7,523 bases of DNA, from IMG/VR virus record IMGVR_UViG_2609460344_000014, positions 1 to 7,523 of that record; one strand, written 5' to 3'. The translations under genes and the position numbers were made by a program. Shown one piece after another: positions 5,291 through 6,237 of the stretch; the first letter of the stretch is position 1; each line of letters opens with the position of its first letter. Source of the stretch: a virus (lineage: Duplodnaviria > Heunggongvirae > Uroviricota > Caudoviricetes). The notes below the pieces were generated by a model. That model had not been told where the DNA came from, searched no databases, and saw nothing but the letters and a program-made list of their open reading frames with translations.

Positions 5291-5332
5291 GTTTTGTTGA
5301 TGCGCCGTATCGTCGCTGTATTCCCTCATTAA

Positions 5333-6237
5333 CAGAGACCGCAGCCCGACAGGGAGACTCCTCTGCGCGAGTGTGCGGGGATATTTTCCCTGACACCGGA
5401 CGGAAAGCTGACCGCTAAAAATGCGGATATCAGTGGCAGTGTGAATGCGAACGCCGGGACGCTCAACAACGTCACGGTAAATGAAAACTGTACGATTAAG
5501 GGCATACCGGCCCGAAAGGTGAGCAGGGCGACCCGGGAGGTCCACAGGGACCGAAGGGCGACAAGGGGGATACAGGAGCTGCAGGCCCGGCGGGGCCACA
5601 GGGACCGAAAGGGGATACAGGAGCCGCAGGCCCGGCGGGGCCACAGGGACCGAAAGGGGATACAGGAGCCGCAGGCCCGGCGGGGCCACAGGGACCGAAA
5701 GGAAATACAGGAGCCGCAGGTCCGGCAGGGCCACAGGGACCAAAAGGGGATACAGGAGCCACAGGTCCGGCAGGACCGCAGGGACCGAAAGGGGATACGG
5801 GAGCCGCAGGCCCGGCAGGGCCACAGGGACCGAAAGGGGATACAGGAGCCACAGGTCCGGCAGGGCCACAGGGACCGAAAGGGGATACAGGATCCACAGG
5901 TCCGGCAGGTCCTCAGGGACCGAAAGGGGATACGGGAGCCGCAGGTCCGGCAGGACCACGGGGACCATCCGGAAGTCCTGACAGCGGGCTGTTTGGTGTC
6001 GGTTCTTTTGTCCTTGCGGCGTATTATGCGACGAGTTATTCGGGGGATATGGCACCGGGCGCAGCTATTGCCGGCTCATCACTGTCTGCATGTTGCCTTT
6101 CGAATGGTACTCCCCTGGTTGCTTCCTCTCGTGTGGGGGAGACCCGTTTACCGGGCACGTGGCGTGCATGTAGTCCGGTAATATGGACATCTGCTGCAGG
6201 TACAAGACAGGCAGGATTATTTCAGCGCATATCATGA
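5333..6237 (+). pseudogene. 3' remnant of a collagen-like tail-fibre gene: 5'-truncated and frameshifted
   Basis: The reading frame opens with no start codon right after a stop at 5330-5332 and reads ...[38 protein letters not shown] (tail-fibre-like). A -1 frame change is needed around 5500-5512 (stop TAA 5497-5499 in the downstream frame). The downstream frame (codons from 5500) then runs through Gly-X-Y collagen-like repeats and a roughly 90-aa C-terminal domain to TGA 6235-6237. Neither segment has its own start before 6049. Confidence 0.7.
5566..5970 (+). repeat. Tandem array of nine 45-bp units (consensus ggggatacaggagccgcaggcccggcggggccacagggaccgaaa) encoding the collagen-like 15-aa unit [15 protein letters not shown]
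   Basis: Units begin at 5566, 5611, 5656, 5701, 5746, 5791, 5836, 5881 and 5926 with a few substitutions each; a more degenerate unit precedes at about 5521. Period is 45 bp, so the frame is preserved. Confidence 0.9.

Follow-up and report, generated by a model that had tools for sequence, protein, structure and literature searches.

The DNA that separates the lysis genes from the tail-fibre assembly gene in the element described here is very probably a non-functional scar, left by two illegitimate-recombination deletions in one lambdoid prophage at the potB/potC site. The larger deletion, of about 20.9 kb, would have fused codon 944 of J, the tail-tip gene, to the spacer at a point 93 nt past Rz, taking with it cosQ/N/B, the Nu1/A terminase, the portal, protease and capsid genes, all of the tail shaft genes and most of J. 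The smaller, of about 1.7 kb, would have brought stf codon 172 up against J codon 984, out of frame, and so removed the receptor-binding domain of J, lom and the tail-attachment domain of stf. Still present and intact in the remnant are nanS-p, the holin and lysozyme genes, Rz/Rz1 and tfa, together with a YkgJ-like gene. We envisage deletions of the end-joining or replication-slippage type, rather than ones mediated by an insertion sequence (IS) or by homologous recombination.

The window, by which we mean the whole stretch of 7,523 nt that was analysed, is the entire contig JNRD01000117.1 of assembly GCA_000704505.1, as confirmed by sequence identity; the strain name on the sibling assemblies is E. 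coli 2-460-02_S3_C1. Its layout, drawn from an ORF listing, Pfam scans and annotated relatives, is as follows.

178-2121: nanS-p type SASA esterase
2248-2452 and 2490-2759 (gene calls): DUF1378 and DUF826 small genes
2835-3050: class II holin
3206-3610: ORF of unknown function
3647-4180: lysozyme
Lysozyme-Rz interval: small ORFs
4823-5290, plus strand: Rz spanin gene, 155 aa, intact (Pfam PF03245 Phage_lysis, E = 3.6e-50)
5043-5228: Rz1 lipoprotein ORF embedded in Rz (ORF listing)
5291-5383, plus strand: native post-Rz non-coding spacer, the last 93 nt of the left arm
5382-5383: junction A, TA common to the post-Rz spacer and J (three-way alignment)
5384-5503, plus strand: internal J fragment, codons 944-983 of 1134
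5441-6181, plus strand: 246-aa ORF, apparently spurious
5504-5505: junction B, AT common to J codon 984 and stf codon 172 (three-way alignment)
5506-6237, plus strand: 3′ 59% of stf, predicted pseudogene
5566-5966: collagen-like 45-nt repeat, 8.9 copies (TRF)
6245-6853, plus strand: tfa-like DUF4376 gene, 202 aa, intact (Pfam PF14301, E = 8.8e-17)
6998-7384, minus strand: YkgJ-family CxxCxxCC gene, phage-borne (Pfam PF03692, E = 1.3e-11)
7492-7523: attachment-site core overlapping the 3′ end of potB

Rz equals the ‘lysis protein’ of intact relatives in length and position. Between holin and lysozyme (3134-3610) lies an ORF of 134-158 aa with no Pfam match on record, and the lysozyme-Rz interval (4258-4723) holds two or three small hydrophobic ORFs of 28-51 aa; at these positions relatives have YdfR, DUF1327 or an antirepressor.

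A reading of the window made from its letters alone, referred to below as the sequence-only reading, correctly placed the Rz stop codon at 5288-5290 and took the DNA immediately after it to be a deletion scar in which the lysis cassette is fused directly to a tail-fibre gene. The fusion does not begin there, since 5291-5383 is normal phage spacer: the window from 5200 to 5383 is identical at 184/184 positions to an intact relative (L002), and 5291-5383 is identical in this and two further intact relatives (L019 and L020), two of the three encoding an identical Rz protein. Past 5383 the identity to all three drops abruptly. The left breakpoint lies 93 nt past the Rz stop, within the phage's own non-coding DNA. 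Among the E. coli genomes listed, most left-arm matches end at 5383 and a few at 5346. When positions 4700-6300 were compared by megablast with 5,426 complete E. coli genomes, the left arm stopped at 5383, the right arm started at 5493 or later, and no locus covered at least 80% of the query; a narrower query (5230-5600) and the whole window gave the same break pattern. At junction A the intact phage reads GTGTGCGGGGATAATCAAAAAC, J reads CCTCCGGTATTTTCCCTGA and the window reads GTGTGCGGGGATATTTTCCCTGA, with TA as the sole overlap, and the join connects the post-Rz spacer to codon 944 of J.

The DNA beyond this point is an internal piece of J. Positions 5384-5500 match annotated gpJ tail-tip genes at 117/117 bases (E = 1e-53), with matches in 3,140 genomes, and the fragment corresponds to nt 2828-2951 of a J gene of 3,405 nt, which amounts to codons 944-983 and two further bases; its translation is identical to the J of one relative (L005). 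On the domain map of J the retained piece has the Phage_Tail_Tip domain on one side and the C-terminal receptor-binding domain on the other, and in a Pfam scan the fragment alone matched no domain. At junction B, J reads ACGATTAAGGGCATGCTGGAGG, stf reads GCGATAAGGGGGATACCGGCCCG and the window reads ACGATTAAGGGCATACCGGCCCG; AT is shared, and an imperfect match of 10/13 positions (CGATTAAGGGCAT against CGATAAGGGGGAT) surrounds the join. The reference stf has 415 codons, and the remnant restarts at nt 515 of 1,248, in codon 172. Frame arithmetic places J and stf out of phase across the join. A J-stf fusion protein was considered and rejected, on account of this phase difference and of the lack of any Pfam match for the 246-aa ORF. 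In place of a single scar there are therefore two breakpoints, at 5382-5383 and 5504-5505, with 120 nt of J between them; alignment to intact relatives, which the sequence-only reading had recommended for locating the breakpoints, mapped both junctions to the nucleotide, with matches of a quality that chance could not give.

Junction A also sets a J-derived T-run (ATATTTTCCC) directly 3′ of a GC-rich post-Rz hairpin (5350-5392) and adds an 8-bp outer stem to it, with CAGGGAGA from the left arm and UUUUCCCUG from J. The predicted RNA hairpin (dG = −24.4 kcal/mol, z = −3.9) was flagged by a terminator scan, and the intact phage has no T-run at this position. We do not adopt the candidate as a new terminator, the predicted match being one of consensus and energy only, with G-U pairs and a short T-run.

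What was lost can be read from L009, a lambda-like and to all appearance complete prophage at the potB/potC site of E. coli ST866 (NZ_CP077646.1, 509-556 kb), the single same-site reference. In gene order it carries int, xis, early genes, DUF968, RusA, Q, tRNAs, SASA esterase, holin, lysozyme and Rz, then Nu1/A, portal, S49 peptidase, D, E, FI, FII, Z, U, V, G and T, and, at the tail end, H, M, L, K, I, J, lom, stf, tfa and YkgJ. The three window segments are colinear in this prophage, with order and orientation unchanged. Those that are adjacent in the window lie 20,913 bp apart at junction A (L009rc coordinates 24802 / 45714) and 1,694 bp apart at junction B (45837 / 47532), which bears out the proposal in the sequence-only reading of an internal deletion of the morphogenesis region. 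The first gap contains cos, the terminase, portal, capsid and tail genes and J codons 1-943; the second contains the 3′ end of J, lom and the 5′ end of stf. In total about 22.6 kb is missing relative to ST866, including the packaging site and all head and tail genes, and these sizes are estimates, since identity to the reference in the nanS-p and lysis region is just 72-97% and the deleted parent was therefore a mosaic relative. Measured against a second reference, whose head genes are of the HK97 type, the loss is much the same, about 22 kb in all.

The loss of the packaging site, a point absent from the sequence-only reading, falls within the first deletion. In intact relatives that carry an identical Rz protein the distance from the Rz stop to an exact lambda cosN (GGGCGGCGACCT) is 254 nt, which places the site 161 nt beyond the breakpoint, and the terminase genes follow about 450 nt after Rz. 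The window contains no cosN match within 2 mismatches, and terminase, head and tail genes are missing between Rz and tfa. Where a lambdoid late region runs from the lysis genes to cos and Nu1/A, the window has intact lysis genes with no cosN or terminase after them; the element is a lambdoid derivative and no complete lambdoid prophage. Of its tail-end module, lom is gone, J is down to 40 codons and stf to its 3′ 59%, and tfa is intact; what remains has the order and orientation found in relatives L003, L004 and L005. With potB on one side, phage early genes on the other and 22.6 kb missing by comparison with the same-site reference, it is a defective (cryptic) prophage, as had been anticipated from its lack of genes for particle formation. 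Without cos and the morphogenesis genes it can build no particle, and a lambda-type helper terminase would have no packaging target. A satellite or helper-packaged element (PICI, P4-like) was accordingly rejected for lambda-type packaging, cosN being inside deletion A.

Two nucleotides are shared at each junction and no DNA is inserted, which would favour joining of the end-joining or replication-slippage type. An overlap of at least 2 nt is expected by chance in about 16% of random joins, so that, homologous and IS-mediated routes being excluded, the mechanism is otherwise weakly constrained. The flanks are 99.7-100% identical to live relatives, which makes the event recent. No intermediate carrying a single junction was found in the 5,426 complete E. 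coli genomes or in other collections, and on this evidence two sequential deletions and one complex event are indistinguishable; the order or simultaneity of the deletions, like the mode of joining, is a matter of inference.

Both junctions might, for example, have come from one complex rearrangement, through a template switch or through break repair with the 120 nt of J as filler. We give this a limited though real chance. Such an origin would fit the failure to find either junction A alone or junction B alone in any of these genomes and collections, although unsampled intermediates are weak evidence in a rare lineage. It would also fit the retention of a very short (120 nt) and colinear piece of J, and the 8-bp outer stem formed by CAGGGAGA and UUUUCCCUG at junction A (dG = −24.4 kcal/mol, z = −3.9), inverted complementarity being able to guide template switching; a 6-8-nt inverted match close to a junction is, however, not improbable by chance, and two successive deletions are simpler and common in prophage decay. 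We therefore retain two deletions as the preferred account.

An IS inserted in the morphogenesis region, followed by an adjacent deletion, is a very improbable source of the scar. IS activity in this prophage type is real, as a partial IS256-family transposase gene truncates Q on a sibling contig (L011), yet neither junction has an IS end, an inverted repeat, a target duplication or an unexplained base, and the flanks match phage references contiguously, to the nucleotide. Since every base is explained by the spacer, J and stf segments, there is no IS remnant or filler DNA, and of the two kinds of trace that the sequence-only reading suggested looking for, microhomology is limited to 2 nt at each junction and IS remnants are absent.

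The junctions themselves are real DNA joins. Sequences of 62 nt over both are identical in four assemblies: JNRB, JNRC and JNRD, which are sibling colony isolates, and CAJSJS01 (GCA_907175995.1), from another accession series. The scar is also found inside contigs of 56.7 kb and 76.6 kb that continue into potB, potA, pepT, roxA and phoQP, and its copies are separated by a few SNPs and one collagen unit, as inherited alleles would be. It is hardly conceivable, then, that the joins are assembly or sequencing chimeras of a short-read draft. The window is, to be sure, a draft contig of 7.5 kb, and a 4.8-kb block of it recurs on five contigs with different flanks, so that the assembler treated the region as a repeat. 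Graph misjoins, however, require a shared k-mer, whereas these joins share just 2 nt; the same junctions occur in three sibling assemblies and in GCA_907175995.1 as well as in the chromosome-anchored contigs; and the source-assembly contigs listed with the exact Rz protein are all scarred (2 of the 12 contigs read lay outside that listing).

Elsewhere the arrangement is rare. By BLAST neither junction occurs in the 5,426 complete E. coli genomes; exact 31-mers of junctions A and B have no match in GTDB species representatives, and that of junction A has none in JGI metagenome contigs. The arrangement is absent from 50,697 phage records, and a scan of IMG/VR for junction B returned two contigs only, both from the source assembly. 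A literature search by WGS accession and strain name found no publication on the locus. Recurrence in four assemblies, together with absence from the other collections, indicates a derived, lineage-restricted state and not a type of phage. That the window shows the native gene order of a distinct phage or satellite-like element with tail-fibre genes after its lysis genes is scarcely credible, even though int/xis are kept, tfa-attP-int joins are assembled (L014 and L016) and the element may still excise, because stf lacks a start codon and N-terminal domain, J is reduced to 40 internal codons out of frame, cos is missing and the order is seen in 0/50,697 phage records and just the two IMG/VR entries.

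A frame does open at 5333, after the TAA at 5330-5332, and has no start codon before the GTG at 5441, as the sequence-only reading had noticed in describing a tail-fibre frame that continues into collagen-like repeats. In three-frame translation this frame is not stf: it consists of spacer, then the 40 J codons, then collagen DNA out of phase. The true Gly-X-Y frame is a separate one, running from 5500 to 6237 with its stop at 6235-6237 (Pfam Collagen, E = 4e-24), and its earliest possible start codon is at 6049. The collagen-like repeats themselves, and the tfa-like gene that follows them, are as that reading described, with a 45-nt repeat at 5566-5966 and an intact DUF4376 gene at 6245-6853. 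From 5493 onward the window is 95.5-99.7% identical to the stf-tfa-ykgJ-potB region of relatives, and the stf remnant is 95.5% identical to L003 stf and 99.7% to L004 (5611-6300). The PF08400 phage_tail_N domain, which occupies residues 1-127 of the intact L003 stf (E = 1e-38), is missing; of the N-terminal domain, shaft and tip that an stf gene carries in one started ORF, the Collagen domain and tip remain. By these features the stf remnant is to be taken as a pseudogene, with neither a start codon nor an N-terminal tail-attachment domain. It would be unexpressed, and the tail-fibre tip would thus survive as DNA only, so that the retained genes named in the sequence-only reading hold good for nanS-p, the lysis genes and tfa, all intact, and fail for a functional fibre tip.

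Gene callers report the 246-aa ORF at 5441-6181, which begins at a GTG in the J fragment and continues in wrong-frame collagen DNA; it has no Pfam match. A sibling copy of 231 aa stands in GenBank as ‘fibronectin type III family protein’ (KDY49956.1). Judged by its frame, the ORF across junction B is an artefact and this name a mis-annotation. A second long spurious ORF, of 339 aa (5036-6055, minus strand), passes through the collagen-repeat DNA on the wrong strand. Copies of the scar in sibling isolates differ by one 45-nt collagen unit (15 aa), which accounts for the 246-aa and 231-aa versions, and the scar in GCA_907175995.1 has several SNPs inside the repeat; the collagen repeat is still unstable since pseudogenisation. 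An apparent divergence of L008 at 5751-6000 in a whole-contig three-way MAFFT alignment was dismissed as an alignment artefact, the ORF translating identically.

The tfa-like gene has a GGAGG ribosome-binding site at 6238-6242 and encodes 202 aa, as in intact prophages; the exact protein is found on 90 E. coli contigs. It is a complete ORF of the DUF4376 type immediately downstream of stf, and a putative tail-fibre assembly chaperone. The YkgJ-family gene has tfa and potB as its neighbours in ST866, and tfa and int on L014 and L016. Since it moves with the phage side on these two contigs (tfa-ykgJ-attP-int), it belongs to the phage, as a cargo gene or moron, rather than to the chromosome. Its length is 109 aa in the gene calls and 128 aa in the longest ORF.

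Contigs L010 and L014 are identical over 4,789 nt and diverge at the equivalent of window position 7524, and the potB gene call starts at L010 4758, which is window 7492. The window thus ends exactly where the sequence branches to potB or to phage int, and this branching right after 7523 places the core of the attachment site at the 3′ end of potB. The sequence-only reading had also suggested that the flanking genome be checked for morphogenesis genes. The right flank runs directly into the chromosome, through the YkgJ-family gene and then potB, and the left flank, on the sibling contig L011, is the usual DUF968-RusA-Q region.

The number of copies is a separate matter. Five contigs of the source assembly carry a block running from about 2735 to 7523, namely the window and L010, L011, L013 and L014 (JNRD01000018, 97, 120 and 128). 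Three of the five have different nanS-p alleles as their left flank, and two start just upstream of holin, one leading to potB and the other to phage int/xis; in sibling assemblies one and the same left flank leads once to potB and once to int. SNPs between the copies are few (2773, 2891, 3033 and 7441). Against L011 and L013 the region of nanS-p and DUF1378/DUF826 (178-2750) is strongly mosaic, at 44-100% identity in 250-nt bins, and the window is identical to both downstream of about 3034. The nanS-p allele of L013 is frameshifted and split into ORFs of 408 aa and 221 aa.

Tandem or multiple copies, circular excised forms or assembler redundancy are all possible explanations of the five-contig block, which a simple single-copy remnant leaves unexplained. 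With one 4.8-kb block attached on its left to three nanS-p alleles and on its right either to potB or to an attP-type int/xis join, the data would allow an excision-competent integrative element in 2-3 copies with differing nanS-p alleles, either in tandem at potB/potC or as a chromosomal copy plus circles, an idea that we advance tentatively and think rather unlikely. Were it true, it would suggest that a defective prophage has recently been amplified or has undergone gene conversion, perhaps under selection for the dosage or diversity of nanS-p.

One of these contigs also carries a damaged Q. In the interval 2231-3420 of L011 (JNRD01000097) this gene is cut at about nt 459 of 822 by the partial IS256-family (Transposase_mut) gene, an arrangement also found at the left ends of L015 and L016, and on L011 the match to the ST866 prophage picks up again only immediately before nanS-p. 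In the Q-truncated copy the late operon is probably without its activator. Truncation of Q would silence that operon, which may explain why an intact lysis cassette is tolerated.

The loss of genes by deletion is an ordinary and well-known form of prophage decay. The scar is real but ordinary in this sense, being one more precisely mapped, very recent and microhomology-poor instance of such decay, and it introduces no new principle. For annotation, the consequences are that the 246-aa ORF should be treated as an artefact and the stf remnant marked as a pseudogene, and that the prophage, although its lysis cassette and nanS-p are intact, should be scored as defective, having neither cos nor the genes for morphogenesis. 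The finding of several copies and an attP join could be of modest interest for the persistence of defective prophages and the spread of nanS-p alleles.

In E. coli O157 Sakai the defective lambdoid prophages among Sp1-Sp18 have deletions, frameshifts and IS insertions in genes for morphogenesis or packaging, and some that are highly degraded, such as Sp7, still excise and circularise (Asadulghani et al., 2009; PMC2669165). The element in the window is likewise capsid-less, with tfa-attP-int joins in assembled contigs; the potB/potC element and its junctions are not described in that paper. The ST866 prophage occupies the same site and has the same gene order on both sides of the scar, with identities of 99.7-99.8% in the DUF968-RusA-Q segment and in the segment from the stf 3′ end through tfa and ykgJ to potB. 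It differs in keeping the 22.6 kb that includes cos, Nu1/A, W, portal, C, D, E, FI, FII, Z, U, V, G, T, H, M, L, K, I, full J, lom and full stf, and in its nanS-p allele, which is 72-91% identical to that of the window.

The same outcome is seen in the cryptic prophage Qin of E. coli K-12, a lambdoid remnant that has lost its head and tail genes and keeps a lysis cassette (essQ-ydfR-rrrQ-rzpQ/rzoQ) and a truncated stfQ followed by tfaQ, with pinQ downstream. [quoted passage not shown] In the window, by contrast, the sequence breaks within the spacer, before cos is reached; 120 nt of J is left by a second junction, and there is no pin invertase. The flanks of the window scar, unlike those of Qin, are still about 100% identical to live phages, as expected of a recent event.
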